From positions 1 through 59,794 of the forward strand of contig JAKALU010000004.1 in assembly GCA_021824065.1 (NCBI GenBank): a stretch of DNA of 59,794 nucleotides. The letters run 5' to 3'. Positions 43,668 to 59,406 of the stretch are shown here, one piece after another; position 1 is the stretch's first letter; the number at the start of each line of letters is the position of its first letter. The translations under genes and the position numbers were made by a program. The notes under the pieces were generated by a model. The model had not been told where the DNA came from and made no database searches. It saw nothing but the letters and a program-made list of their open reading frames with translations. Source of the DNA: Nitrospirota bacterium (lineage in GTDB: Bacteria; Nitrospirota; Thermodesulfovibrionia; Thermodesulfovibrionales; UBA1546).

Positions 43668-44036
43668 TTATCCACCTATAAAACTGTTGACGAGTTTTAT
43701 GAGCTCCTGCGTCTGGATAGGTTTTGGAAGATATGCATTGGCTCCGATGGCAATGGCCTTTTTTTTGTCCTCTTCTGCTCCCTCTGTCGTTATTATTATT
43801 ATCGGTATATTTTTATAAGCGGGATTCCCTCTTACAAGACTGACAAGTTTCAAGCCATCCATAACAGGCATATTTATATCTGCGAGTATGAGATCTATTT
43901 TTTCCGAGGATAGTTTTTTTAAGGCATCAACTCCATCCGTTGCCTCAACCACCTTTGAGTTGGATATCCTCTTCATTGCGAAACTGATAAGTTGTCTCAT
44001 CGTCGGCGAATCTTCTACTACAAGGATATTTGGCAT
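43668..44036 (-). CDS. cheY: CheY-like response regulator
   Basis: LVVEDS, ILADINMP, ITTEG, KPI. Confidence 0.9.
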   Translation of the reverse strand: MPNILVVEDSPTMRQLISFAMKRISNSKVVEATDGVDALKKLSSEKIDLILADINMPVMDGLKLVSLVRGNPAYKNIPIIIITTEGAEEDKKKAIAIGANAYLPKPIQTQELIKLVNSFIGG

Positions 44037-44044
44037 CTTATCTC

Positions 44045-44866
44045 CTACCTCCTCGGCTTTTCTTTCAGCAGATCAAGGAAACTCTGTATCGTAGTCAATT
44101 TCCTCTCTGATTGGGTATATAGTCTTGAGGAAAAAATAGCAGTGGCAGCATGTCCAGCGAGAAGATTAAAAAGCTCATAGTCAACATTTGAAAATTTTTC
44201 TTTCTGTATCAGCAATGAATATATAGAGATAACACCTATTACGTGCTCCTTGATCTTTAGAGGTATGCAGACTATAGGCCGGTCATCAGGGGCACTGCCT
44301 TCTCTGTGTGTATTCTCTGAAAAATAACTCTCGCCTTCTTTTGCAACAGTTCCTATGATGCCTTCACCAAATCTGACTTTCGGGACATCTGCTATAGACA
44401 TGCCTTCTGTTGCAACAGGCACGAGCTCGTTCGTCTTATCTTCCATGAGGAGTACTGCAAATTTTTCGGCGCCTATGAGATTTATAATTATCTCGAGAAC
44501 TATCTTCAGGACCTCATTGAAATCCAGGGTTGAATGTAGCTGGTAGCTCGCCACATATAGATTGGCAAGGTTGTTGTTTTCTTCCTCCACCTCTATATAT
44601 TTTACTGCAAAATCCTTATTCTCCTCTTCAACCTGTTTATATCTCTCCTTGAGTGAATTCAGTTCGTCTTCTACCGTCTTTATTCTATCTTCATAAAGTT
44701 TTATTCTTGCTTCATCTCCGGAACGCTCTATGGTCTCCTCGAGCTGGGCAATTCTGAACCGCAATTTCTCATTCTCTTTGAGTAGTTCCTGTGTAAACTC
44801 TTCTCCCTTTTTAAATATCTGGAGAAATTCATCAGCCTTTTTTGTAATGTTTTTCTCTCTTTCCAT
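44045..44866 (-). CDS. Coiled-coil + GAF domain protein
   Basis: About 100-aa coiled coil, then GAF (LHSTLDF, GEGIIGTV, LFNLLAGHAA). No output domain. Confidence 0.8.
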   Translation of the reverse strand: MEREKNITKKADEFLQIFKKGEEFTQELLKENEKLRFRIAQLEETIERSGDEARIKLYEDRIKTVEDELNSLKERYKQVEEENKDFAVKYIEVEEENNNLANLYVASYQLHSTLDFNEVLKIVLEIIINLIGAEKFAVLLMEDKTNELVPVATEGMSIADVPKVRFGEGIIGTVAKEGESYFSENTHREGSAPDDRPIVCIPLKIKEHVIGVISIYSLLIQKEKFSNVDYELFNLLAGHAATAIFSSRLYTQSERKLTTIQSFLDLLKEKPRR

Positions 44867-45930
44867 TAATCCTGTCCTCTTTTAACAATTTTTATCAATT
44901 CCATAGGTATCTCAGGGAGTGGAAGCACCCTGTCCACTACCCCTGTATTTATAACCTCAGCAGGCATACCAAAAACCACAGCGGTCTCTTCCGACTCAGC
45001 TATAGTATAACCACCTCTTGATTTAATTTCCAGTATCCCCTTTTTGCCGTCATTGCCCATACCTGTAAGAACAACACCCATAGTTTTACTGCCATAATGC
45101 TCGGCAGCAGAAGTCATCATAGTATCAACCGAAGGCACATATTTATCTTCAATGGTTGCCTCTTTAAGCAGAACATGACATTTCTGCCCCTTTTTCCTGA
45201 GCGCTATGTGATAACCGCCTGGACATATCAATACCTTACCTTCCTCAACGATATCGCCATTCTCTGCCTCTTTTATCTTTACCTCTGAAAGCTTGTCAAG
45301 CCTTTCAGCCAGAGGGCCTGTAAAGCCTTTCGGCATGTGCTGACTTATAAGAACTGCAGCAGAAAAATCAGACGGGAGCCGTGTGAGGATTATCTGGAGC
45401 GCTGCAGGTCCCCCGGTTGATGCGCCTATGGCCACGACATCTATATCGCCTATCGACGGTTCCATTGCAGGTGTGCCCTCATGGCCGGCGCTTAGGAGCT
45501 GAAGGTTCTTACTTAATCTGTCCATCCTGAGGTTCTTTGTCCCTCTTACCTTCCTGAGCAGGTCTTTTTCTATGCCCTGAAGCTCAGCAGATGCCCTTTT
45601 TGTCGGCTTTGCAATAAAATCAACAGCACCTAATTCGAGGGCTTTAAATACTGTTTTTGTGTCGGAGTAAGAGCTGACCATTATTACCGGCGTAGGCCTC
45701 TCTTTCATGAGCCATCTCAAGAAACTAAACCCGTCCATCTGGGGCATCTCAAAGTCAAGCGTAATCAGGTCAGGTTTAAGTCTCAATGTCTTTGCCATTG
45801 CATCTATGCCGTCAGATGCTATGCCTATAACTATAATATTCGGATCTGTCTCGAGCATCTTCTTTATTGTCTGTCTGCTATAGGCAGAATCATCAACGAC
45901 AAGGACTTTTATCTTTGAATCAGTCATCAT
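44866..45930 (-). CDS. cheB: Chemotaxis methylesterase CheB (REC + esterase)
   Basis: VVDDS, IGASTGGP, QHMP, PSVD, LTGMGNDG. Confidence 0.95.
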   Translation of the reverse strand: MMTDSKIKVLVVDDSAYSRQTIKKMLETDPNIIVIGIASDGIDAMAKTLRLKPDLITLDFEMPQMDGFSFLRWLMKERPTPVIMVSSYSDTKTVFKALELGAVDFIAKPTKRASAELQGIEKDLLRKVRGTKNLRMDRLSKNLQLLSAGHEGTPAMEPSIGDIDVVAIGASTGGPAALQIILTRLPSDFSAAVLISQHMPKGFTGPLAERLDKLSEVKIKEAENGDIVEEGKVLICPGGYHIALRKKGQKCHVLLKEATIEDKYVPSVDTMMTSAAEHYGSKTMGVVLTGMGNDGKKGILEIKSRGGYTIAESEETAVVFGMPAEVINTGVVDRVLPLPEIPMELIKIVKRGQD

Positions 45931-45932
45931 AA

Positions 45933-46838
45933 TTATGTTTTATTTCCCCATACCATCTTAACGAGACTGTCAGACGACATTGACATCGTAAGCTTCGGAG
46001 GTTTCTGATAAACCATATCATTTTTAAAATGCTTCAGTGTAAAGTCGGTAGAGACATTCATGAGGGATTCCGCATGACCGAGCAGCAGGTACCCTCCATT
46101 TACAAGCCTCTCATAAAAATTCCTGATTACTTTTTTCCTTGCCTCCTGGTTAAAATAGATTAATACATTTCTGCATAATACTACATCCATATTCCCGACA
46201 AATTTAATCTTGAAGGGATCGAGAAGATTGAGGCAGCTGAAATTTACAAGCTGTTTCACATTGTCGTTTATCCTGTATAAATTGTTTTCGTGTGAGAAAT
46301 ATTTCTCGATAAAATGTTCCTCCGTAGTCCTGAACGAATTCTTTCTGTATATGCCCCGTCTGGCATGCTGCAGCACTCTCTGATTTATATCGCTTCCGAG
46401 TATCTCGATATCCCAGCCGAAAAAATAGCCCTGCTCCAGGATTAACATTGCGATCGTATAAGGTTCTTCTCCTGTGGAACATCCTGCAGACCATATCCTT
46501 ATTTTTCTCGTGTCTCTATTTGTATTTTTAAGCTCGGGCAGTATCTCTTCGCTTAATGTCTTTAGCTGACTCATTTCCCTGAAAAAATAAGTCTCATTGA
46601 CGGTGAGAACATCTATAATAAATGAGAGTTCTTCGTCTTTTCGCTTATCATATAACAAGAGCCTGTAGTAATCTCTGAAATCGTTCAAATGATGACTCTT
46701 TACTCTTTTGGACAGTCTTCTCTCTATAAGGTATTTTGAGTTATCATCAAAATAGAGGCCGCAGTAATCTTTTATGAGGTCTCTCAGGAGTCTGAATACA
46801 TCATCTGATAACGGGACTGTTTCTTCTCTCTCAATCAT
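45933..46838 (-). CDS. cheR: Chemotaxis methyltransferase CheR
   Basis: NETYFFRE, WSAGCSTGEEPYT, CRNVLIYF, LLGHAES. Start placed at ATG 46838. Confidence 0.95.
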   Translation of the reverse strand: MIEREETVPLSDDVFRLLRDLIKDYCGLYFDDNSKYLIERRLSKRVKSHHLNDFRDYYRLLLYDKRKDEELSFIIDVLTVNETYFFREMSQLKTLSEEILPELKNTNRDTRKIRIWSAGCSTGEEPYTIAMLILEQGYFFGWDIEILGSDINQRVLQHARRGIYRKNSFRTTEEHFIEKYFSHENNLYRINDNVKQLVNFSCLNLLDPFKIKFVGNMDVVLCRNVLIYFNQEARKKVIRNFYERLVNGGYLLLGHAESLMNVSTDFTLKHFKNDMVYQKPPKLTMSMSSDSLVKMVWGNKT

Positions 46839-48804
46839 TGAGACTCTCCTCAATAGCCTTTCTTACGATAGGGTCGTCCTCTTTATCGAGCAGCCTTTCA
46901 AGCTCCACCTTCACGTTGCCCGCTGCCCTTGTACCGAGAACTTCAACAGCTGCAATCCTTGTAGCCCAGTCATCATCGTTCAGATACGGCAGAAGTTTAT
47001 CCTCTATACCCTCAAATGGCGCAAGGGCTTTTATGGAAGTTCTTTTTATCTCTTTATCTTCTGAGAAAAGCATATTTATCAATGCATCCCTTGCACTTTC
47101 ACCGCCTATCTTGCTCAGGGACTCTATAGCAGCAGTCACAACAAACCCGTTCGGGTCTGAAAGCACCCTGATAAGATTCCCTGCTGTATTTTTTTCGCCT
47201 AATTCACCGAGTGCCTTTACCGCAGCGACTCTGACCGCATCATCGGGATCGGTAAGCAGAAGGACCAGCGATTCTGATACCCCTTTCCCTTTAATCGAAC
47301 CGAGGCTTAATGCTGCGGAAGCCCTTATATCAGGGTTCTCATCTGTGAGTGCAAGCGTGAGATATTTTATAGAATCGTCTGTCTTTATCATGGACAGTGC
47401 TCTAACAACTGCATGTCTTACATTGATATCATCATCTTTTAGTGCAAACCCGATTGCGTGCACAGCCTCAACAGCGCCTATCTCACCAAGCAGTAACACG
47501 AAGTTTTTTCTGAGAACAGGGTTTCTATCGCTGAGTGTTCTGACAAACTCATCAACCGCAAGACCTGCCTTAAGATTAGATAGTGCAATAACTGCAGCCT
47601 CCTGCACATCTTCGTATATATCGGACAGGAGGTTTTTTATTGGAGTTATTGCCCTCATATCTCCTATCCTGGAGAGGCTGAGAGCCGCGAGTCTTCTCAC
47701 ATGGCCGTCATCATCTGTTAGCTGCTTTTCGAACATGTCGTAAAAAGCAGGTGATGCTAATTCGCCGGCAACGCTGCATATGAACCGTTTCTGGTAAGGG
47801 CTTACTGTATCAAAGAGAGGCAGAATAACCTCGGGTTTGTCCTTTCCTATGAAAACAAGCGCCCTCTTCACATCTTCTGCAAGATCCTCCTCGAGCGAGA
47901 GTTCAAGCAAGGGGGCAAGTGCCCGTTCATCTTTCATAAGACCGAGTAAGAGTATAGCGGAAATCCTTACATCGGGTTTATTGCTCCACGCATGTGATAC
48001 AAGTATATCAATGATGCGGTTACCAAAGAATTTTCTCATTTCCTCTGCAATAAGTTCTTCTCTCACACCGCTGTGATAAAAACTTTTTATTGTCTTTACT
48101 GCCTCTTCCTGTATTGTCTTTGACGAATCTTCGAGAAGGGGAACTATATGCTTAAGTGTTTCAGGCGCGGAAAATCTGCCGAGTGCTTTAAGCACAGGTT
48201 CTCTGAGGGTCTTTATAGAAAGTGTTTTGATGAGTGAAGGGATGGCCCTTCTGTCACCAATTCTTCCGAGTGCGTCAGCAGCAGGGTATGCTGTCCACAA
48301 ATCGCCGCTCTCGAGTATCTCTATAAGTGCATTTACTACTGCCGGCTCGCCTATCTTTCCAAGGTGTTCAACAGCAGATGCCCTGACATTATCGTCCTCG
48401 TCCTTGAGGGCATCGAGCATTAATGGCAGAGACCTTTTATCCTTGAACTCTCCAAGCACATCTATTATGAATTTCCTTACGTCGCGGTTTTGTGTATTAA
48501 ATGCCTCGATTAAAAAAGATGTGGCCTTTTTGTCTAATTTTATAAGTGTTTCTATAGCTGAGTTCCTTGCACCTGCATTGTCATCGAGATAAAGGAGAGC
48601 GATTAATCCTCCGATATATGCCTCAACCGGATATTCTCCGAGCAGGATGTCAACTGCAGTTTTTCTAACCCTCCAGCTAACATCTTTCATTGCCTTAAGA
48701 AGTAATCCAATAGATGTATCTGAAGGGTTGCCCCTTAATCTCTCAACTGCCTCTCTTCTGACTTCTACATCTTCATTATCAAGTAGTTTTTCCAGTTCCT
48801 GCAT
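46831..48804 (-). CDS. HEAT-repeat (PBS lyase-like) protein
   Basis: More than 15 repeats of the L.D.D..VR..A..ALG type. Confidence 0.9.
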   Translation of the reverse strand: MQELEKLLDNEDVEVRREAVERLRGNPSDTSIGLLLKAMKDVSWRVRKTAVDILLGEYPVEAYIGGLIALLYLDDNAGARNSAIETLIKLDKKATSFLIEAFNTQNRDVRKFIIDVLGEFKDKRSLPLMLDALKDEDDNVRASAVEHLGKIGEPAVVNALIEILESGDLWTAYPAADALGRIGDRRAIPSLIKTLSIKTLREPVLKALGRFSAPETLKHIVPLLEDSSKTIQEEAVKTIKSFYHSGVREELIAEEMRKFFGNRIIDILVSHAWSNKPDVRISAILLLGLMKDERALAPLLELSLEEDLAEDVKRALVFIGKDKPEVILPLFDTVSPYQKRFICSVAGELASPAFYDMFEKQLTDDDGHVRRLAALSLSRIGDMRAITPIKNLLSDIYEDVQEAAVIALSNLKAGLAVDEFVRTLSDRNPVLRKNFVLLLGEIGAVEAVHAIGFALKDDDINVRHAVVRALSMIKTDDSIKYLTLALTDENPDIRASAALSLGSIKGKGVSESLVLLLTDPDDAVRVAAVKALGELGEKNTAGNLIRVLSDPNGFVVTAAIESLSKIGGESARDALINMLFSEDKEIKRTSIKALAPFEGIEDKLLPYLNDDDWATRIAAVEVLGTRAAGNVKVELERLLDKEDDPIVRKAIEESLND

Positions 48805-49261
48805 CTTTCTCCTCTATAAGTCCAGCGGATTCCTTGAGTATTATCTTTTCTTCTGATGTAAGAAGCCTGTCAATGTCCAGGAGTATTATTATCCTGTCCT
48901 CTTTCTTACCGAGACCTGTGAGATACTCTGTTTTTAAGCCTTTGAATATGGACGGCGGGGCGATCATCTCTTCAGGGGCAAAGGAGATTATCTCATCTAT
49001 CTCATCTGCAAAAAGACCGATCTTCTCTTTTTCAAGGCGTACTACTATTATACGTCCCTTTTTTGAAGAAGACTGGATACCAAAGCGCAATCTGAGATCA
49101 AGCAGCGGTATCACATCGCCCCTGACATTTATGACACCTGATATGAAATCAGGGAGTTCAGGAAGGGAATGAATCTTCTGTGATTTGAGTATCTCAACAA
49201 CCCTGTTAATGCTAACGCCAAAATCTTCGTTCCCTATCCTGAAGACTGCAAATTTTTCCAT
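48779..49261 (-). CDS. cheW: CheW
   Basis: GVINVRGDVIPLLDLR. Confidence 0.92.
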   Translation of the reverse strand: MEKFAVFRIGNEDFGVSINRVVEILKSQKIHSLPELPDFISGVINVRGDVIPLLDLRLRFGIQSSSKKGRIIVVRLEKEKIGLFADEIDEIISFAPEEMIAPPSIFKGLKTEYLTGLGKKEDRIIILLDIDRLLTSEEKIILKESAGLIEEKDAGTGKTT

Positions 49262-49331
49262 CTCTAATCCCCTGCCTTCGAAGTCAAGATTTAAAATCCA
49301 AAGATAAACCTCTTTCTGGAATTTTAATCTT

Positions 49332-51356
49332 TTAACTTTTTGTTTTAAATGTCTTTATCTCTTTTTTCAGCAGCTCAATTTCATCACGAAGTGTTGTTAA
49401 TGAGAGAGAGACTGCTTCGACATCTCTTATAGAAGCTGCGCCTATAATCTTTATCTGCTCCATGGCAGTCACGATGCTTTCATTAACCTTCTGTTGATTT
49501 GATGATGACTGTCCTATTTGTTTTATCCGGTCATCTGCAAGTTCAAGATTCTTAGATATCATCTTAATGCTCGTAGCTTCTTCTTCTGTGCCCTGTTTAA
49601 CTATGTCAGAAGCATCTTTGACATCGCTGACGCTTTCAAGAAGATAAGATGTTCCCTTCCCATGTTCTTGTGTTGCTTTTGCAATCTGACCCATCATTTT
49701 GCGAATACTCTCTATTGAAAGAGAAATCTGTTTAAGTCCCTTTACCTGCTCCTCTGTTGCCCTCTCAATTGACCGCGCCATATCAGCAGACTGCTCCGAT
49801 GCGTGGAGGGTTTCTCGCAATGCACTCCCGACGTTGTAGACCATTGTACTGCCTTCATTGACCCTGTTCATGCCAGAGTCAATAGCCCTTACTGCCTCTG
49901 CTATCTCTGTCTGTATTGTCTTGACAATAGTGGAGATGTCCCTTGTGGATGACGCTGTCCTGTCACTGAGGGCTCTTATCTCGTCAGCAACAACAGAGAA
50001 GCTTTTCCCGTATTCTCCTGCCTGTGCAGCGAGTATGGCGGCATTCAGACTAAGCAGATTTGTCTGCTCAGTAACATCTTTTATAACAGAAAGGATTTTT
50101 TCGATATCCGCTGACCTTGCACCAAGACGGGTTATTATCTCCGATGAGTGCTTTACCTCATCTGAGATCTTCTCCATACCCTCAACTGCGTCCATAACAG
50201 CCATCATGCCTACCTCAGATGCAATCTCGGTGACCTTTGAGGCAAGCGATGCTGACTCTTTTGCACTATGCTCAACTTCCTTCACCGATGCATTTATCTC
50301 TTCGATAGAAGCTGAGGTATCATCTATTGCAGCAGATGTCTCTTCTGTATTCCCTGCAATTGTTTTAGCAGTCTGGGACATCTCGGCAACTATAGAATAG
50401 GCATCCTCTGCGGCCTTGAATAGCTTGCCTGTGCTTGAAACAATCTCATCTGCTGTTGCCTTCATCTCAAGCAAAGATGTAACATTCTCATTAGAAAAAT
50501 CTATAAGTTTTCCTGTGTCCTCGGTTATCTGTTTCTGTGATGCATTTGCCTGTTTGGTGGAGGCTATTGCAGCATGGGTCGACTCAGCCTGTTTCTGAGT
50601 CCCCTCTATTACATTCTTAAAGGTAAGGTTTAACTGGTCAATAGCCATTGAGACATTTTCTGATGTGGACCTCAGTTTACTGAGAGTGGAAACTAATCCG
50701 TCAATAAGAAATCTGAACCCCCTTGCAATACTCCCGATCTCATTATCCCCGAATTCCTGGATCTCTACAGTCAGGTCCCCTGCTGTTGCCTTTTTTATCT
50801 CTTCATTAAGCATTTCAATGGGCTTTCCAACCTTTTTCTGGAAAAAGAAATATATGGCATATATAACAAAAATGAAAACAAGGATCTGCCCCAGAGGAGA
50901 AATGGTAAGAAGCTTTTTTATGTCCTTGTTAGCCTTCTGACCGCAGTAAACAATCTCGATAATGCCGATGGTCTCTCCGGAAGATTTTATAGGCACGGAG
51001 TAAACATTGATCAAAGGGATATAAAATGGATTAATGCTCTTATGCCTTGTCTCAATCTTAAGTACCCTCTCCCTTAAGACGTTTCCATTCTTATCCGTCA
51101 CCTTAATGGAGAGTATATCTTCATCCTTTGAGAGCACATCAATATATTGGTCAAGATAACTATAGTTATAGCTCAGGATGGCAGTGGTGGTGACATTTGT
51201 AAGCAGGTTGGCGGTTGTTCTTATTTTATCTTTGAGCGACTCTGCGTAATACGCGCTCTGACCATTGACAAACCAAAACCAGAGAGCGCTCTGCCCGAGC
51301 ACAAGGATGAGAAGCACCACAAGTATGAATCTGACTGCAATAGATTTCTTTTTCAC
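49332..51356 (-). CDS. Methyl-accepting chemotaxis protein, long (about 64 heptad) class
   Basis: TM-periplasmic-TM-HAMP; tip [20 protein letters not shown]; about 230 aa from HAMP to tip. Confidence 0.92.
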   Translation of the reverse strand: MKKKSIAVRFILVVLLILVLGQSALWFWFVNGQSAYYAESLKDKIRTTANLLTNVTTTAILSYNYSYLDQYIDVLSKDEDILSIKVTDKNGNVLRERVLKIETRHKSINPFYIPLINVYSVPIKSSGETIGIIEIVYCGQKANKDIKKLLTISPLGQILVFIFVIYAIYFFFQKKVGKPIEMLNEEIKKATAGDLTVEIQEFGDNEIGSIARGFRFLIDGLVSTLSKLRSTSENVSMAIDQLNLTFKNVIEGTQKQAESTHAAIASTKQANASQKQITEDTGKLIDFSNENVTSLLEMKATADEIVSSTGKLFKAAEDAYSIVAEMSQTAKTIAGNTEETSAAIDDTSASIEEINASVKEVEHSAKESASLASKVTEIASEVGMMAVMDAVEGMEKISDEVKHSSEIITRLGARSADIEKILSVIKDVTEQTNLLSLNAAILAAQAGEYGKSFSVVADEIRALSDRTASSTRDISTIVKTIQTEIAEAVRAIDSGMNRVNEGSTMVYNVGSALRETLHASEQSADMARSIERATEEQVKGLKQISLSIESIRKMMGQIAKATQEHGKGTSYLLESVSDVKDASDIVKQGTEEEATSIKMISKNLELADDRIKQIGQSSSNQQKVNESIVTAMEQIKIIGAASIRDVEAVSLSLTTLRDEIELLKKEIKTFKTKS

Positions 51357-51420
51357 TTTACAGTCACCGCCTTGTCCTGAATCATCTTGTAACTCCTTTC
51401 ATGGATGGTGTGTATAAATC

Positions 51421-54273
51421 TCATATCATCCCCAATTTTGACATCATTAATTTTATGTTATCATAATCTTCATCTCTTGCCTCAGCGAAACCAGTATAAC
51501 TTTTAGTTATAGATTTAAGTGCCAGGCTGCCATCTGTTGTTAAATCAGTCAGGGCGGTTAACGCAGACTTTAAGAGAGATACGTCTTCTTTACTCAAAAA
51601 TTTGTTAACACATATATTGAATTCGGGTATGTTCTCCGAGACCTTTAAAAACTTTAACCCCTCGTCTTTGAATTTGTGAGCAGTAGCCTCCATTACAGCG
51701 CCTGCATCGAATTCTCCTTTAAGCACTGCCTTTGCAACGTCATCATGATGCCCGAGGTAGTTATAGTAATTGAGGTCTTTCAGGTCTATACCCGCATCTA
51801 AGAGCATAGCCCTTGGAACAATATGACTTGATGTTGAGTGGAAATCCCCGAATGCAAATGTCTTGCCCTTTAGGTCTCCTAATGAATTAATATTTTTGTC
51901 CTGCCTTGTGATTATCACAGAGTGTTGATAGGGTTTGCCATCCCTCAGCGCCTTTGCAATTACAGCAGTATCATACTTGTTGTGGGCCTCGATGTACGTG
52001 GATGGTGTCATGTAACATAATTGAGTGATGTTCTTCCCTATATCATTTATTGCCTCTTCAAAATCGATTGCCACTTTCAGTTCAACTTTCATTGCAAGCT
52101 TTTTGCTAAGATAATCTGCAAGTGGTGTAAACTTTCTGAACATCTCTGCAGGGGATTCCAGAGGCACAACCCCGAATCTTAATACGCCTTTGGCTTTCTC
52201 TTCGGAAAATTTAAATCTCCCTATCTCTGTATCGATCAACTCTGCATCTTTAAAAAGACCCCTCAATGCATTATTTACATTAAAAGCGAGGTCGCGATTT
52301 CCTTTTGGAATCTCCTTAATTTTTTCTATGGAATTCCATATCTGGTTTGAACCTATCTTCTGTTCGTAAATTGCCCTTGAAATCTGCTGGCTCTTGTCAG
52401 AGACTACCTCGATTGCCTGTGATATATGTTTGCTGTTAACTGCCTGTTCTCCTGTCGCTGTCTTGACCTGCTGGGATATGTCCCTCATCTTTTCTGTTGC
52501 ACTCATGATCAAGGTTATGCCTTTTGATTGCTCTGACGTTGCTTTGGCAATCAGTCCCGTCATATTTTTGATGCGTTCCATTGCCTCTGAGACAAGCCTT
52601 ATTGCCTTTGCCTGTTCTCCTGTAGAGCGTTCTATAGAGAATGCCATCTCGGAGGATTTTTTAGAACTGTCCAGAATCTTTTTTAACGCATCAGATGCCT
52701 CTTTTGAAAGTTTTAATCCTTCCTCGACAGACCTCAGCCCGTCCCCCATCGCATGAACAGCTCCTTTTACCTCCTGTTGAACGGACTGTATAAGAGAGCC
52801 TATCTCCTGAGTTGAGAATGCTGTTCTCTCTGCAAGGTCCTTAATTTCATCGGCGACAACCGAAAATCCTTTGCCATGCTCTCCTGCCTGTGCTGCAAGT
52901 ATGGCTGCATTCAGGGCAAGAAGGGTTGTCTGATCTGTAATCTCATCTATTACATTAAGTATCTTCCCTATCTCCTCTGACCTGCCGCCGAGTTTCTTTA
53001 TAAAGTCATTTGTCTTCTCAACGGAAGACTTTATATTCTTCATCCCATCCATGGTTTTTTCTATGGAGGTCATGCCAAATGTTGATGCATCATTCATAAC
53101 CTTTTCAGATAGCTTTGCTGATTCCTTTGCATTCAGTTCAACCTCTTTTACAGAGGATGTTATCTCCTCTACAGCAGACAACGTTTCTTCCGTAGCTATT
53201 GAAAGGTTATCAGCATTTTTTGCAACCTCTTTTATCGTAGCAGAAAGCTCTTCAATAGAGGATGATGTTGCCTCAACAGATGAGGAGAGGTCATGGGTGC
53301 TGTTTGTTACCTGTCCTATGCTTGTAGCAATCTGATCCATCGAGGCTGCTGTCTCCTCTGCCGATGCAGCGAGTCCCTCTGTGCTTTCAGTAATCTCTGA
53401 AATGGCAGCATTCAGTTCCTCAACCGAACTCGAGATATCCGCTACAGCCTCTGCCTCAAGCTGGGTGCCGTCCACCACCTTTTTTGAGTCCTTCTCGACA
53501 TTTCCAACAACACGTGAGATTCTTATCGAGACATCTTTAATCCTCTGGAGTATTCTTCCTAAGGAACCGATAGAATCTTTTATAGACTGGCTGAGCCGGG
53601 CGATCTCATCCCTGCTTTTTACAGTTATGTCAAATGACAGGTCACCCTCTGCCAGTTTCGATGCCGCTGATTCTATTGTCTTGATAGGCAATATAACCAT
53701 CTTCCTGAGCATGAACCACAGCACAAAACTGAAACCGAAAGAACCGATAATAGTCACCATGATTACAGTTATTATTGATTTCTGAGCCTTATTGTATTCC
53801 TTCTCAATGGATAGGGAGACTTTAACAGCGCCGAGAATGGCTCCCTCCTGGACATGACAGCCCTTGCATAAAGAGGCATTTTCAAGGGGTTTGTAAAGAA
53901 CGAACCTCTTTGCATCCTTTATTGTAATAGGCATGTTTGTGCTTATTATCTTTTTTATCGAAGCAGCTTCATCTTTTGGTGCATCCTTTTTGAACGCCTC
54001 CCTGCCCTCAAAGTTTATTACACGAACATCCTCTATCCCGCCAGTTCCCCGCATGCCTTCTATAAGTGTTTTTGTGAGGTCGGGTCTATTTTCGATCATC
54101 GTACGCTCAATATTCTTTGTGACAATTGTCGCTGTGGTACTTGAATTTTCTTCAGTGATGCCATATAGAGTCGATTTTTCTATAAGCATAGTCATAACGC
54201 CTGCTAAAACAACGCCGATAAGGAGCATGGTTAAAACAGTAATAATTATCTTAAACTCAAGCTTTTCTCTCAT
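51421..54273 (-). CDS. MCP with a periplasmic haem-c motif, about 64H signalling domain and C-terminal PhnD-like binding domain
   Basis: CKGCH between TM1 and TM2; HAMP; tip [15 protein letters not shown]; then [29 protein letters not shown]. Start placed at ATG 54273. Confidence 0.9.
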
Positions 54274-54338
54274 AGAGCCTCCCTCCAATAAATTCAAACT
54301 GCAAAATTAAAGATTCAAAATAAAGGAATTCCATATTT

Positions 54339-55064
54339 TTATTCTTTTAATTTTAGATTTATATTTGATACCTCCTCTATTCGAATGACGGAGATAAATC
54401 TGCTGTTATGAAGAACAACTCCTTCAATAAATATTAACTCAGCTTCTGAAAGGTGGGCAGGTGGCTCAACAATCTCTGATGGCGAGATGCGGATAACGCT
54501 ATTTACCTTATCTATTACAGCTCCGAAAGGTCCTTTTGAACCTTTTAGAATCAGTATCTTTTTGCGAGATTCGTCTATCTCCTCCCTGCTTTTAATCGAT
54601 AATCTCTTTTTCAGGTCTGTCACAGGTATTATCTTACCTCTCAAGGAGGTGATTCCGAGGATATAATCAGGCACCTTTGGAACCACCGTGATTCGCTGGA
54701 ATCTCAGTATCTCTTCAATATCATTAACCCTGAAGGCAAACTCTTCGGTAGACAGGCGGAATGTTAAAAGTTCAATTATATCAGTGAATATCTCTTCGGG
54801 TTTTGCAGCCTTTGCAGCGGTATCCGGAATACTCTCTTTTTTGACAGTCGGAGCACCGAAAGTTTCCTGAGAAACTATCTCAGGTCTGTCTTCTGATTTC
54901 TCGCCTGTGATTTCTGCACTCTGTGTTCTGACACCTGTCTCTTCTACGGGTTTCTCTTCGCCTTTACGAGACTCTGATTCTTGAGGAGTTGTAGCTTCAG
55001 GCGTTCCTTCCGCAGTCTTCTCCTTCTCCTCCTTAATCTTTTTCCTAATTTTCGCTATATCCAT
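54339..55064 (-). CDS. cheW: CheW with an N-terminal acidic low-complexity extension
   Basis: About 95-aa E/K/T-rich N-terminus, then GITSLRGKIIPVTDL. Confidence 0.88.
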   Translation of the reverse strand: MDIAKIRKKIKEEKEKTAEGTPEATTPQESESRKGEEKPVEETGVRTQSAEITGEKSEDRPEIVSQETFGAPTVKKESIPDTAAKAAKPEEIFTDIIELLTFRLSTEEFAFRVNDIEEILRFQRITVVPKVPDYILGITSLRGKIIPVTDLKKRLSIKSREEIDESRKKILILKGSKGPFGAVIDKVNSVIRISPSEIVEPPAHLSEAELIFIEGVVLHNSRFISVIRIEEVSNINLKLKE

Positions 55065-55863
55065 TCAGTCCAAGCTCCTGGGCAGCTTCGCCAATCAACT
55101 GCCTTTCAATAATTCTGTACTCATGACCAAGCCCGCTTAAAAGGGCTGACGTTGCAAGGCTGTTTATCAATCTCGGGATGCCTCCGGAATACATATGAAG
55201 CGCCTTCAGTGCCTCATCTGTAAAAAGCATATCCTCACGGCCACCTACCTTCAGTCTGTGTTCCACATAGCCCCTGATTTCATCTTCCTTAATCGGACTG
55301 AGATGATAGAAGAGCCCGATCCTTTGTTTCAGGGGCAGGTATGCCTTATGGTTTAACCTGCGTCTGAGGTCAGACTGTCCTACAAGTATCAGACATAAAA
55401 GATTTGTGTCATCAAGCTGGAAATTAGTAAGCAGTCTTATCTCTTCGAATGTCTCCTTGTTCGGGATAAGCTGCGCCTCATCTATTATTATGACGGGTGT
55501 TATCCCTGTTTGATAATCTTCGTAGACCTTTGAATAGATTGCTTCAAGAATGTCATCTTTGAAATTAGACGGGATATCTATATCGAAGCGTTTAGCGACT
55601 GTTCTGAGGAATTGGGCTGGTGTAAGCCTGGGATTGATAATAAGTATAATCCTGTATTTTTCTCCAAGCAGATCTATCAAAGCTCGTGTAAGTGTGGTCT
55701 TCCCGCAGCCGATATCTCCTGTCAGGAGAATCAGTTCTTTTTCCTCGACGGCATATTGCAGCCTCGCGAGCGCCTCTTCGTGTGCCCTGCTCATGAAAAG
55801 AAATTTCGGGTCAGGTGTTTTGTTGAATGGTCGGAGTTTTAGTCCATAAAATTCCTCATACAT
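55045..55863 (-). CDS. ExeA/GspA-like AAA ATPase (no peptidoglycan-binding tail)
   Basis: YEEFYGL..RPF..TPDPKFLF, GDIGCGKTT, IIDEAQ, LVGQ, GGIPRLIN. Confidence 0.88.
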   Translation of the reverse strand: MYEEFYGLKLRPFNKTPDPKFLFMSRAHEEALARLQYAVEEKELILLTGDIGCGKTTLTRALIDLLGEKYRIILIINPRLTPAQFLRTVAKRFDIDIPSNFKDDILEAIYSKVYEDYQTGITPVIIIDEAQLIPNKETFEEIRLLTNFQLDDTNLLCLILVGQSDLRRRLNHKAYLPLKQRIGLFYHLSPIKEDEIRGYVEHRLKVGGREDMLFTDEALKALHMYSGGIPRLINSLATSALLSGLGHEYRIIERQLIGEAAQELGLNGYSEN

Positions 55864-57831
55864 TTATAACACCCCCTTTGTTTTTTGTTTGATGACAGAC
55901 TCTTCTATAAGGGCATCAATATCTATGACGAGTATAACCTCATGTTTACCTATCTCCGCGGCCCCGGCGAAACCGCGAAACCCTGCAAAATATTCTCCGA
56001 GTGATTTGATAACTATCTCATGCTGCCCGAAGAGTTCATCAACTATTAAACCATGTTTCCTGTTTCCGCTCCCCACAACGACTGCAAAAGACTTTTCGGA
56101 TTCACTCTCTGCCAGAGCGAAAACCCTTCCGATATTTGTCATCGGGAGCATCTCTCCTCTCAGGTTATAGACCTCTTTCCCCTCTACTGTCTGGAGTTCG
56201 TTTCGTGAGATGACAACTGTTTCAGAGATAGAGGTCAGAGGTATTGCAAACTTCATAGCGCCTACTCTGATGAGCAGGGCTTTGACAATGGCAAGGGTAA
56301 TAGGGATGGTCAGGGTAGCTGTGGTCCCTCTGTCTTTCTCTGTATCAATCTCGGCAAAACCTCCAATAGTTGAGAGTTTTTCCTTCACAACATCCATGCC
56401 AACGCCCCGACCTGAAACCTCGCTTACTACTTCTTTTGTACTGAATCCAGGGGTAAAAATAAAATCTATAATCTCTTTTTCATCAAATTCTGCATCCTTC
56501 TCTAAAAGACCCTTTTCGATTGCTTTCTCTTTCACCCTTTGGATATCAATTCCTCTGCCGTCATCCTTTGCCTCAATGATAACGTGGTTGCCGCGTTGAG
56601 ATGCCTTCAGGATAATGGTTCCTGCCTCCCTTTTCCCCTTTCTTTTCCTTTCTTCTGCAGGCTCTATTCCGTGGTCAATCGCATTTCTTACAAGATGCAT
56701 GAGGGGGTCAATGACCTCTTCCGCGATATATTTATCAATCTCTGTATCTTCACCATACATGATGAGTTCTATCTGTTTCCCAACCTCCCTCGAATATTTT
56801 CTGATGACCTGTGCAAGCCTTGAGAATATCTGTCCTATGGGAACCATTCTTATTTCAAGAACCTGGTTTTGAAGTTCTGCCAGCCGTTTCTCAAGGGTCT
56901 GAGAAATTTTATGGACATCAATAACGAGTGGAGAATGGCCATAAGTCTCGATCAGTTCTTCGCCTATCCTTCTTACAGCACCCTTTGCGAGTGTGAGTTC
57001 ACCTATGGTATTAAGAATCCTGTCTAACTTCTCTATATCAACCCTTACCGTTGTGGTTGTACTCTTAAGTGTAGCATCCTGAGTTTTTTGTGGTTGAGGG
57101 ACAACCCCGACATCCTTTGTCTTGATTAGATTCTCGATGTCAAACTTTATTACCTCTTTAAGTGTTTCTACTGGTTGATTACTTCCAAACATGAGGTTGA
57201 AACCTATGGAATCAGGGGGAACATTCGCTGAGATTGGCAGCGTTGATATAAGCTCACCTTTTGATTTTATTATCTTTGTAATATCTTCAAGTGATTTGTC
57301 AAAGTCTGCAAGCTGGAAGATAGCCTTTGCAAGATAAATCCCTTTGCCTTCCTGAATATTCGCCCTTAATCTGTGTTCCTCGTACTCTGATAGAACCATA
57401 AGCAGAGATTCATCAATAATGCCTTTGAGTTCAGGACCTTTTGCCTTTCCCGCGAGTGAATTTCTGAATATCTCTATATTCTTCAGATGTCCTGATACGT
57501 CTTGTTCTTTATCTTTGCCGAGACCCTCGACAAGCGATCTCAATATATCAATATTATTGAACAGGAATCTTATGACCTCATCGGATATGTCAACCTTGCC
57601 GAGTCTTATCTCATCAAGCAAGGATTCAAGCGCGTGGCTGAGGTCTGCAATGCCCTGATGGCCAAAGAGCCCCGAAAGTCCCTTTAGCGTATGTATGGAG
57701 CGGAATAGGGCATTGATGGTATCGGGATTAAGCCCTGTCTGGAATGTATCCTGTATCTCGAGAATTAGTCGGCCCGACTCTTCGAGTAGGTCTTCTGCTT
57801 CAGCTATAAACTCTTTTTTAGATGAACTCAT
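55864..57831 (-). CDS. cheA: Chemotaxis histidine kinase CheA
   Basis: Hpt FRSIHTLKG, HLVRNAIDHG, DDGRG, PGFST, SGRGVGMD, C-terminal CheW-like P5. Confidence 0.96.
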   Translation of the reverse strand: MSSSKKEFIAEAEDLLEESGRLILEIQDTFQTGLNPDTINALFRSIHTLKGLSGLFGHQGIADLSHALESLLDEIRLGKVDISDEVIRFLFNNIDILRSLVEGLGKDKEQDVSGHLKNIEIFRNSLAGKAKGPELKGIIDESLLMVLSEYEEHRLRANIQEGKGIYLAKAIFQLADFDKSLEDITKIIKSKGELISTLPISANVPPDSIGFNLMFGSNQPVETLKEVIKFDIENLIKTKDVGVVPQPQKTQDATLKSTTTTVRVDIEKLDRILNTIGELTLAKGAVRRIGEELIETYGHSPLVIDVHKISQTLEKRLAELQNQVLEIRMVPIGQIFSRLAQVIRKYSREVGKQIELIMYGEDTEIDKYIAEEVIDPLMHLVRNAIDHGIEPAEERKRKGKREAGTIILKASQRGNHVIIEAKDDGRGIDIQRVKEKAIEKGLLEKDAEFDEKEIIDFIFTPGFSTKEVVSEVSGRGVGMDVVKEKLSTIGGFAEIDTEKDRGTTATLTIPITLAIVKALLIRVGAMKFAIPLTSISETVVISRNELQTVEGKEVYNLRGEMLPMTNIGRVFALAESESEKSFAVVVGSGNRKHGLIVDELFGQHEIVIKSLGEYFAGFRGFAGAAEIGKHEVILVIDIDALIEESVIKQKTKGVL

Positions 57832-58196
57832 AGGTTCAGGATCTTTCTTATAATATCCTGGAGTTCGGGTGCCTTAAAGGGTTTTGTGACATAAGCAGTT
57901 GCACCAAGCGCCATACCTCTTTTTTTATCCTCTTCGCTTCTTTCAGTAGTGACTATTATGAGGGGGATATTACTGTATCTCGGGTTATTTTTGATAAAAT
58001 TTATCAGTTCAAGGCCGTTTATGTCAGGCATGTTGATATCAGTTGCTATTAGATCAAAATCCTGTGAAGGGAGTAGTTTTAAGGCATCAAAGCCTGTGGG
58101 TGCCTCAACAATGTTAAAATCTCCGATTTCTTCGATAACGGCCCTCATCAGAGAGCGTGTAGTTGCTGAATCCTCAACAATAAGAATGGATTTCAC
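57828..58196 (-). CDS. cheY: CheY-like response regulator
   Basis: LIVEDS, ATDINMP, VTTE, KPF. Confidence 0.9.
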   Translation of the reverse strand: MKSILIVEDSATTRSLMRAVIEEIGDFNIVEAPTGFDALKLLPSQDFDLIATDINMPDINGLELINFIKNNPRYSNIPLIIVTTERSEEDKKRGMALGATAYVTKPFKAPELQDIIRKILNL

Positions 58197-58272
58197 ATAA
58201 CCCCCTCAGGAAATTTAAATCTAAAAAGGGCATAGACACCATGAATTTTAACAAATACCAATAAAAAAAGCA

Positions 58273-59406
58273 TCACGTCTTGTGTTTATCCCCCATCTTT
58301 TTTTCCATTTCCTGAAGTCTGCGCTGGAGCAATGATTTTTCGAGAGCAAGACCTGCCTGGCTGACAAATATCTCAAGTCCTTCTGTCTCTTCAATAGCCT
58401 CGTCTGTTGGGAGATTATCGCAATAAAGCATTGCAGCAACCTTCCCTTCCGCAATTATGGGGAATATCGCAACATCTGTCGGCCAACCTCCGCCGAGTTC
58501 GTTCATCATGGATTCAGTGACTTTATCTCTTTCCATTGCCCCTCTGTATGACTGCGCCTCACCCGCAATCTTTGTCAGGAAAGGGCTGTTTTTTAAAAAG
58601 AGCTTTGTCTCTCTTATTTTTTCATCGGCCCTCTCTATCTCGAGCCCGAACTGACCTAGGCCTACAATCTCATTTTCTCCAACCATAAACAGAACACCCC
58701 TCTGGAAGATATCGCTTGCAAATCTGAGTATAAGCAGCGTTATTTCTGAGGTTGAGTTGGGAAATCTCAGTTCCTGCGTAAGTGACTTCAGGGCAGAAAT
58801 ATCTTTCCTTTCAGCGGCTGGTTGGCCTGTCCAATCCTCTTCCCATCCGCTCTCTTCGGCCTCTTCTGTCAGTTCTGTATTTGGAACAAACTCTTGCTGG
58901 ACAGATTCATCATATGCCCTTGCGCCCTCCATGAGAAGGTATTCAGGGCTGATTCCTTTCGAGACCTCCCACCCAAAATCTTCAACTTCTATCTTATTTT
59001 TTATATCAAGGTCATCAAGCTCAAACTGAAAATCACCATCCTGCCAGAGCAGGAGTTGATAGACGACCTTTTCTATCCTCTTTTTTGAGGCCTTCTCCAT
59101 GACGTCTTTATTTACAGCGCCAAAATCAAAAAGTATTTCTGCAATTGATTTGGTGGGCAGCTTTTTTTTTACTTCCAGAGCCATCTTCAAAGCAGATTCT
59201 TTTATCACTCCGCTGTGCAGAAGGTCATGGCCGAGGGTCCCGTCAAGTGCGCTGGTCGCTGCTCTGACAACGAGACCATTTTTAAACACGATTAGGGCAG
59301 AACCTGCTCCTCCCTTGATTACGAGAGTCCCTGTTTTCTTACCGATGCTCAGTATCTGGAATATATCAGCGAGGGCAAGGTCTTCGAGCCTTCCAACCAG
59401 ACTCAT
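58273..59406 (-). CDS. DUF4388 (PATAN-like) + GAF-like domain protein
   Basis: GRLEDLALADIFQIL..KKTGTL..IVFKNG, WQDGDFQF; C-terminal GAF-like segment (FPIIAEGKVAAMLYCD). Confidence 0.8.
   Translation of the reverse strand: MSLVGRLEDLALADIFQILSIGKKTGTLVIKGGAGSALIVFKNGLVVRAATSALDGTLGHDLLHSGVIKESALKMALEVKKKLPTKSIAEILFDFGAVNKDVMEKASKKRIEKVVYQLLLWQDGDFQFELDDLDIKNKIEVEDFGWEVSKGISPEYLLMEGARAYDESVQQEFVPNTELTEEAEESGWEEDWTGQPAAERKDISALKSLTQELRFPNSTSEITLLILRFASDIFQRGVLFMVGENEIVGLGQFGLEIERADEKIRETKLFLKNSPFLTKIAGEAQSYRGAMERDKVTESMMNELGGGWPTDVAIFPIIAEGKVAAMLYCDNLPTDEAIEETEGLEIFVSQAGLALEKSLLQRRLQEMEKKMGDKHKT

Follow-up and report, generated by a model that had tools for sequence, protein, structure and literature searches.

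Chemoreceptor input is usually placed at the membrane-distal sensor. Few receptors are known to receive a signal behind the signalling hairpin, and where a signal transducer uses a periplasmic-binding-protein fold, this fold normally lies outside the cell. The locus analyzed in this work raises the question of what such a fold does at the cytoplasmic end of a methyl-accepting chemotaxis protein (MCP). The gene lies on the minus strand of a 59,794-nucleotide stretch (hereafter the window), i.e., positions 1 to 59,794 of contig JAKALU010000004.1 of the assembly GCA_021824065.1, obtained from a Nitrospirota bacterium of the order Thermodesulfovibrionales. A preliminary description of this DNA proposed a receptor with two inputs, a periplasmic haem-c sensor and a cytoplasmic PhnD-like domain behind the hairpin. 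The analysis presented here shows a complete binding-protein domain with a conserved pocket and a recurrent fusion, and it leads us to favour, with reservations, the reading of this flytrap tail as a second, cytoplasmic ligand input of a transmembrane chemoreceptor. The receptor gene and its modules are as follows (TM1 and TM2 stand for the two transmembrane segments):

51421..54273, minus strand: whole chemoreceptor gene, 950 aa (coding part 54273..51424, stop codon 51421-51423)
54181..54252, minus strand: TM1, residues 8-31 (hydropathy scan; helix 4-60 in the structure model)
53779..54180, minus strand: putative periplasmic haem-c PAS-like sensor domain, residues 32-165 (PF21563 and 3b47/3b42 matches)
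53704..53778, minus strand: TM2, residues 166-190 (hydropathy scan)
53563..53709, minus strand: HAMP domain, residues 189-237 (Pfam PF00672, E 6.7e-10)
52213..53562, minus strand: signalling hairpin, residues 238-687 (about 32-33 heptads per arm, ~64H)
52183..52212, minus strand: short linker of 10 aa, residues 688-697, from the last hairpin helix to strand 1 of the binding domain
51424..52182, minus strand: cytoplasmic PtxB/PhnD-type Venus-flytrap domain, residues 698-950

The list of open reading frames (ORFs) contains a single open minus-strand frame at 51421..54297, whose product counted from the ATG at 54273 has 950 aa. A GGAGG Shine-Dalgarno sequence just 5' of this ATG marks it as the start, and the MREKLE N-terminus common to 40 homologues matches it; the TTG at 54297 is a mere in-frame upstream extension. 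A Pfam scan of the product revealed four modules (Mcp40H-20_sensor, HAMP, MCPsignal, and Phosphonate-bd), giving the order TM1, periplasmic haem-c PAS-like sensor with its CKGCH motif, TM2, HAMP, hairpin, linker, and Venus-flytrap. Two membrane segments only (residues ~8-31 and ~166-190) were found in the hydropathy scan, and the basic residues R2, K4, and K8 preceding TM1 place the N-terminus inside. The same scan detected no hydrophobic segment after the hairpin tip, either in this receptor or in 182 related fusions. Since no transmembrane segment follows the hairpin, the C-terminal flytrap domain is cytoplasmic, and an exported tail was rejected. The coordinates, architecture, and topology of the preliminary description were thereby borne out, and its own doubts, i.e., a stop or frameshift at the junction of the two parts, or a transmembrane segment exporting the binding domain, were dispelled: the frame is open and uninterrupted, and no such segment exists among the 182 fusions.

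An architecture of this kind could also result from an artefact such as wrong assembly, a frameshift, or the joining of two separate genes, and the domain might be exported after all. The fragmented state of the source assembly (211 contigs) is the only support that was found for this explanation, whose probability we regard as practically negligible. In a word-indexed protein search, the tail retrieved 525 proteins; among the best 120, nearly all combine MCPsignal with Phosphonate-bd, most have 949-955 aa (the shorter ones look partial), and the label is Nitrospirota or Thermodesulfovibrionales in almost every case. The architecture is common to more than 100 protein clusters. A scan with one genome per species yielded 158 confirmed loci, the best 80 of which were examined for frame and gene context. 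In these 80, junction and domain lie in one frame with 53-84% identity, and all of them come from Nitrospirota metagenome-assembled genomes (MAGs) except one 'Burkholderiaceae' bin and one record named 'Bacterium BMS3Bbin08'. The former is locus L016 (CAZFET010000256.1; 83% identity), assigned to an 'uncultured Burkholderiaceae' bin, and is most likely a mis-binned contig.

The search for this architecture across genomes, which had been proposed at the outset, was extended to an even sample of the phylum (401 genomes, 163 genera). The fusion is present in 76 of these genomes and in 52 of the genera, and several families of the same order lack it. The sampled fusions are nearly all uninterrupted frames of ~930-1000 aa, with a few rows shorter or longer (contig ends shorten some). 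A stop-free single frame thus recurs in the 76 sampled genomes as well as in 80 or more named species genomes, coming from many independent studies, and the junction sequence is conserved among homologues, with F687 invariant. With the frame open and conserved in so many independent assemblies, an artefactual fusion was rejected, and the fusion appears, on sequence grounds, to be genuine and widely conserved in uncultured Nitrospirota.

What kind of domain has been fused is indicated by both profile and structure comparisons. The Phosphonate-bd (PF12974) match spans residues 700-937 and the entire profile (positions 1-242 of 242; E 2.3e-62). The tail passes the NCBIfam model TIGR01098 (144.7 bits vs the cut-off of 112) and fails the PhnD equivalog TIGR03431 (127.7 bits vs 261). 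Its matches in the PDB include PtxB (5o2j, E 8e-30) as well as ArrX, PhnD, HtxB, and AioX, and it is 32% identical to PtxB of Pseudomonas stutzeri. Residues 696-950 were modelled with the help of 26 orthologues, and the model reached a predicted local distance difference test (pLDDT) value of 96 and a predicted template modelling score (pTM) of 0.90. It superposes on liganded PtxB and ArrX with template modelling scores of 0.87-0.89 and a root-mean-square deviation of 2.0-2.5 A, compared with a score of ~0.65 for apo PtxB. According to this model, the tail is a complete class II bilobal flytrap in a closed form. The PhnD-type binding-protein fold without signal peptide or transmembrane segment, recognized earlier from the letters alone, is confirmed by the full-length profile match and by the superposition.

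The ligand contacts of PtxB and PhnD have been defined crystallographically (PMC5700983), and the pocket residues of the receptor were mapped from these contacts via a pairwise alignment with PtxB. The residues used below are:

51829..51837, minus strand: S813-T814-S815, anion-binding motif, equivalent to PtxB S124-T125-S126
51742-51747, minus strand: H843-D844 of the STS-H core, H843 aligning with PtxB H155
52159..52161, minus strand: L705, lid latch, at the position of PtxB D16
51619-51621, minus strand: F885, lid cap, at the position of the PtxB capping Tyr (Tyr203)

The motifs GDFHSTSSH and GH.D, pointed out previously, are both present, the latter as GHHDD, and correspond to STS 813-815 and H843-D844. 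The distance from the hairpin tip to the binding domain divides 189 fusions into groups with 33-34 heptads (159 receptors), 20 heptads (16), and 28 heptads (7), which are referred to here as the 64H, 40H, and 28-heptad classes. In the 64H class the anion core is kept nearly throughout (S813 in 158/159, T814 in 148/159, S815 in 144/159, H843 in 159/159, and D844 in 155/159), and H843 and D844 are invariant in the other two classes as well. The lid positions are Leu in 151 and Phe in 156 of the 159 members of the 64H class, in 12/16 and 15/16 of the 40H class, respectively, and in 7/7 of the independently fused 28-heptad class. Exported relatives vary there (Tyr, His, Trp, and others) and carry Leu or Phe in a minority only. 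The 64H class has additional conserved residues (C753, H784, H817, H842, E884, and N886), and in the fusions the position of PtxB Y94 is Gln or His, with the Tyr contact Y754 kept.

At the level of whole modules, the mean identity in the homologue alignment is 82% for the hairpin tip, 70% for the flytrap, 57% for HAMP, and 54% for the haem sensor, and 39% of the flytrap columns are at least 90% conserved. The core invariance, the lid replacement, and this pattern of module conservation indicate a functional binding site that would be under selection and whose specificity is probably unlike that of PtxB. Degenerate binding residues, the remaining doubt voiced in the preliminary description, were not what we found: a non-binding pocket was rejected for the family overall, the core being near-invariant, and loss of the STS motif is confined to rare members, P0139 among them.

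The history of the tail was traced by an exhaustive search with the tail alone, which gave 6651 relatives, the nearest of them nearly all receptor fusions. Pfam assignments show that it has been combined with several front ends, i.e., haem sensors, Cache_3-Cache_2, sCache_3_2, or no periplasmic domain at all, and it also occurs on a shorter hairpin in receptors of 610-640 aa. In a tree of 314 domains, the 64H-type clade (support 0.98) and the 40H-type clade (0.94) are sisters (0.89), and the 28-heptad group falls in another part of the tree, among standalone domains. Because this group lies apart from the two sister clades, at least two separate fusion events have joined Phosphonate-bd to MCP C-termini. 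The closest relatives of the tail that are truly unfused carry signal peptides and are exported. 'Single' binding proteins inside the fused clades were considered as fission products and rejected, as they are gene fragments still carrying hairpin residues. None of the 16 receptors in the 40H class has a periplasmic domain, and five of the 64H class lack one as well, so that in these proteins the flytrap is the only recognisable sensor.

The hairpin and the linker determine how such a domain could act on the rest of the receptor. Two further features are needed here:

52867-52887, minus strand: hairpin tip AGEHGKG, residues 463-469
49332..51356, minus strand: adjacent paralogous 64H receptor MCP674, 674 aa, without binding domain

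The MCPsignal match (Pfam PF00015) covers residues 400-571 (E 3.1e-45), and the tip segment, residues 452-470, is invariant across 40 homologues. The HAMP end and the tip are separated by 228 residues (32.6 heptads), the tip and the first strand of the binding domain by 233, a count in which the 10-aa linker is included. Arms of ~32-33 heptads fit class 64H in the classification of Alexander and Zhulin, this being an assignment from length only. In the full-length model (pLDDT 76), the hairpin helices span residues 223-312, 323-607, and 616-685, and the last one is followed by a low-confidence linker of ~12 residues and then by the binding domain at pLDDT 84-91. The same model contains low-confidence non-helical breaks in both arms, at residues 308-326 (53296-53352) and 603-621 (52411-52467). 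They are symmetric, ~147 residues (21 heptads) from the tip, which suggests a possible hinge splitting the 64H bundle into ~42 tip-proximal and ~22 membrane-proximal heptads.

MCP674 is 36% identical to the receptor over 532 residues and ends exactly at the linker start; the receptor is therefore, in effect, the MCP674 type with a linker and a flytrap added. A paralog of this type adjoins the receptor in 70 of the 80 related loci.

A flytrap hung on the end of a hairpin could also be a protein-interaction or scaffold module, which recruits CheR/CheB in lieu of the absent pentapeptide tether, docks the HEAT, AAA_22, or extended CheW proteins of the surrounding operon, or packs unusually tall arrays, with its pocket empty or occupied by a structural anion. 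We regard this as the main rival, though an unlikely one. The 64H-class linker is variable, modelled with low confidence and tether-like, the receptor lacks a pentapeptide tether although CheR and CheB are encoded in the operon, and the operon holds conserved accessory proteins. Moreover, periplasmic PF12974 proteins such as AioX act via protein-protein contacts with kinases. Near-invariant anion-contact residues, on the other hand, are unexpected in a pure docking module, and the paralogous MCP674 of the same array does without the domain. In the 40H class, furthermore, the hairpin helix enters strand 1 within ~4-6 residues, and there the flytrap is the sole candidate sensor.

The other presumed input is the domain between TM1 and TM2, for which two features are of importance:

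53854..53868, minus strand: CKGCH haem-c attachment motif, residues 136-140 (C136, C139, H140), between TM1 and TM2
54097-54099, minus strand: Met59, candidate distal haem ligand

The position of CKGCH between the two transmembrane helices, as given in the preliminary description, matched exactly. Its assignment to a haem-c sensor family held as well: PF21563 (Mcp40H-20_sensor) matches residues 49-157 with 27.3 bits, a marginal pass at a cut-off of 27, and the PDB matches are 3b47 (E 3.6e-8) and 3b42 (E 3.1e-5), i.e., the Geobacter GSU0935 and GSU0582 sensors, with whose haem-attachment motif the receptor CxxCH aligns. Both CxxCH and M59 are kept in 38/38 haem-type homologues of the alignment, the conservation of CxxCH being far above chance, and the source genome has six genes of the Cytochrom_C_asm (cytochrome c assembly) type. 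Motif and homology thus point to a covalently attached haem, and the domain presumably senses the redox state or a small haem ligand.

Taken together, the conserved pocket, the independent refusion with a shared lid change, and the receptors in which the flytrap is the only candidate sensor are the reasons why we favour a second, cytoplasmic ligand input; the same can be said of the fact that PF12974 domains already serve as signalling sensors elsewhere (AioX, TtrS/ThsS). Several points weigh against it. Ligand binding, the identity of the ligand, and the effect on the kinase output are inferred; a few members have a degenerate STS motif (AAA in P0139, STA in P0124); and what a conserved pocket binds could be a structural anion and not a signal. 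The poorly conserved 64H-class linker with its low model confidence would be as compatible with a domain on a tether as with a rigid transmitter. As to the haem sensor, its Pfam score barely exceeds the cut-off, and this half of the proposal is carried by motif and homology. On balance, a cytoplasmic ligand input of the receptor seems to us somewhat better than an even prospect. The earlier idea of dual input therefore stands as the best-supported reading, given the conserved pocket and the recurrent fusion, with a reservation as to the ligand class.

The mechanism could be as follows. The periplasmic haem-c domain would report the redox state or a small haem ligand. At the other end of the molecule, the last hairpin helix and the 10-residue linker would bring the flytrap next to HAMP, where the four-helix bundle comes closest to the membrane. 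A small cytoplasmic oxyanion would bind in the pocket of Ser-Thr-Ser, His, and Asp, upon which the two lobes would close under the hydrophobic Leu/Phe lid. Lobe closure might change how the C-terminal helix of the bundle packs or moves, and in the control of CheA the internal anion signal would merge with the periplasmic haem signal.

Regarding the ligand itself, the safest statement is that it would be a small tetrahedral or pyramidal oxyanion. Members of PF12974 bind phosphonates, phosphite, hypophosphite, arsenite, and arsenate (the last two in AioX and ArrX), others bind ATP (XAC2383, 5ub7) or glycerol-1-phosphate (GpxB, 9lf9), and TtrS and ThsS, the tetrathionate and thiosulfate kinases, use the domain as their sensor module. 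Because the family includes arsenic oxyanion binders and these sulfur-oxyanion sensors, the ligand need not, by analogy, contain phosphorus. When the contacts of PtxB, PhnD, HtxB, and ArrX were mapped on the tail, the core proved PtxB-like and the lid and one Tyr different. The preliminary description had proposed a phosphate, phosphonate, or phospho-metabolite input; its family assignment was right, and a phosphorus-containing ligand is no more than one candidate class, given the broad range of PF12974 and the replacement of the phosphite-specific Asp/Tyr lid by Leu/Phe. It had also named glucose-1-phosphate (G1P) and ADP-glucose among the compounds to be considered. A link to these through the upstream glgC-like gene is weak: of the 46 related loci extending as far as DUF4388, no more than 16 carry this gene upstream, and for this reason it was not counted as a general member of the system.

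A sub-variant of the ligand model is that the flytrap acts as a feedback or state sensor for phosphorylated species (acetyl phosphate, a phosphorylated receiver, or a nucleotide), tuning the pathway to its own phosphorylation flux or energy charge. The ATP and glycerol-1-phosphate binders of the family are in its favour, and so are the His-rich 64H-class pocket (H784, H812, H817, H842, and H843) and the two CheY genes and CheB in the operon. The domain model, however, fits closed PtxB and ArrX with small ligands best, and the Leu/Phe lid suggests a small enclosed pocket; we consider this variant quite improbable.

The gene context assigns the receptor to a signalling pathway:

43668..59406, minus strand: conserved chemosensory operon of 13 genes (Pfam), with the same order in related species loci

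The order is DUF4388, CheY, CheA, AAA_22 ATPase, CheW (241 aa), the receptor (MCP with the binding domain), MCP, CheW, HEAT, CheR, CheB, GAF, and CheY, and it recurs in related species loci wherever contigs extend far enough. CheA, CheW, CheR, and CheB, the expected genomic partners of an MCP, are thus all encoded in the same operon. Accessory-gene context was counted in the best 80 related loci. The 241-aa CheW beside the receptor (54339-55064, minus strand) has an acidic low-complexity N-terminal extension of ~95 aa, and the stop of the AAA_22 (ExeA-like) ATPase gene (55045-55863, minus strand) overlaps its start; the two are conserved in the operon in 72/80 and 59/80 loci, respectively.

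The source genome (2.7 Mb, 96% complete) encodes three CheA and six MCPs and gave no match to FliG. Without FliG, the pathway does not steer a flagellum, and its output is non-flagellar; the same holds for all three chemosensory systems of this genome. From the operon and its recurrence, the receptor would belong to the core of a non-flagellar chemosensory pathway that is conserved in Thermodesulfovibrionia and other Nitrospirota.

It should be stressed that public records name the receptor family 'phosphate/phosphite/phosphonate ABC transporter substrate-binding protein' (e.g., P0004, P0006, P0150, and P0160), by automatic annotation. The tail is neither exported nor accompanied by an ABC partner, its neighbours being che genes and not transporter genes. 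Being cytoplasmic, with no transmembrane segment of its own, and surrounded by che genes, it is not a transporter component despite the public annotation. The name is wrong for these receptors, and hundreds of database entries are misnamed, which could inflate the inferred phosphonate/phosphite uptake in MAGs of Nitrospirota and some Bacillota.

The same genome contains 12 PF12974 matches in its 2.7 Mb, and most of the exported paralogs examined adjoin large unannotated ORFs. In a second che cluster (G000:C3:3398-9058), a standalone Phosphonate-bd protein bearing a signal peptide (C3:5783-6640) is encoded directly upstream of an 802-aa MCP. The classical arrangement of an exported binding protein and a receptor is thus found in the same genome as the fused cytoplasmic version. 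Two other exported proteins, of 580 and 567 aa (G000:C29:18952-20694 and G000:C93:2854-4557, both minus strand; loci L003/L005 and L002/L007), contain two tandem Phosphonate-bd domains each, have CxxCH ends (..TCGKGCHPKIRL and ..TCGMGCHPRIRF), and are each followed by ORFs of ~500 and 447 aa. No paralog in this genome is closer to the receptor tail than their second Phosphonate-bd domain. These proteins may be haem-tagged periplasmic oxyanion sensors.

Full-text literature searches, with subscription journals outside their coverage, did not bring up any account of an MCP that ends in a Phosphonate-bd domain; the Pfam name occurs in only five papers, and the fusion in none of these. The PtxB-like tail could represent a previously undescribed class of cytoplasmic chemoreceptor input, in which an exported oxyanion-binding protein was moved inside at least two times, re-tuned with a Leu/Phe lid, and came to read an internal anion together with the periplasmic redox state. 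To this full statement we give slightly less than an even chance. If it is true, the array of these non-flagellated anaerobes would read internal phosphate, pyrophosphate, or a respiratory sulfur or arsenic oxyanion, and a cytoplasmic flytrap would be a new route feeding the metabolic state into a chemosensory array. The receptor would then also be a tractable system for studying how signals of the C-terminal helix merge with HAMP input.

Sensors behind the signalling hairpin are known from several MCPs, namely hemerythrin in DcrH, the CZB domain in receptors such as TlpD, and PilZ in Tlp1. In all of them, as in the receptor described here, an extra domain after the hairpin provides a cytoplasmic input. 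The position stressed in the preliminary description is thus unusual, and it is not unprecedented. The hemerythrin, CZB, and PilZ domains are small, being either helical bundles or beta-barrels, and their ligands are metals, O2, or cyclic di-GMP; none of them is known to have a periplasmic-binding-protein fold.

The front part of the receptor resembles GSU0582 and GSU0935 of Geobacter sulfurreducens (3B42 and 3B47; PF21563), which likewise have a periplasmic domain of ~130 aa between two transmembrane helices, with a single CxxCH near the C-terminal end of the sensor, followed by HAMP and the MCP signalling domain. The sequence similarity is, however, low (E 1e-5 to 1e-8, with the Pfam score at the cut-off), and the comparison covers the sensor part. 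By Pfam family name the Geobacter receptors belong to class 40H, whereas this one is ~64H with a flytrap.

The tail shares the complete class II flytrap and the STS-His core with PtxB, PhnD, and HtxB (5O2J, 5JVB, 3P7I, and 5ME4; PF12974). It differs from them in having no signal peptide, in its fusion to a cytoplasmic end with no ABC transporter genes nearby, and in the Leu/Phe pair that replaces the Asp16/Tyr203 lid, the capping pair that makes the P-H...pi contact and is responsible for the phosphite selectivity of PtxB. With AioX, ArrX, and TtrS/ThsS it has in common the PF12974 family, used there for oxyanion sensors feeding two-component kinases. ArrX is among its best structural matches, with S-F-S where the receptor tail has S-T-S. 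In those systems, however, the sensor occupies the periplasm, be it a separate protein or an N-terminal domain, whereas the tail of this chemoreceptor is cytoplasmic and lies C-terminal to the signalling hairpin.

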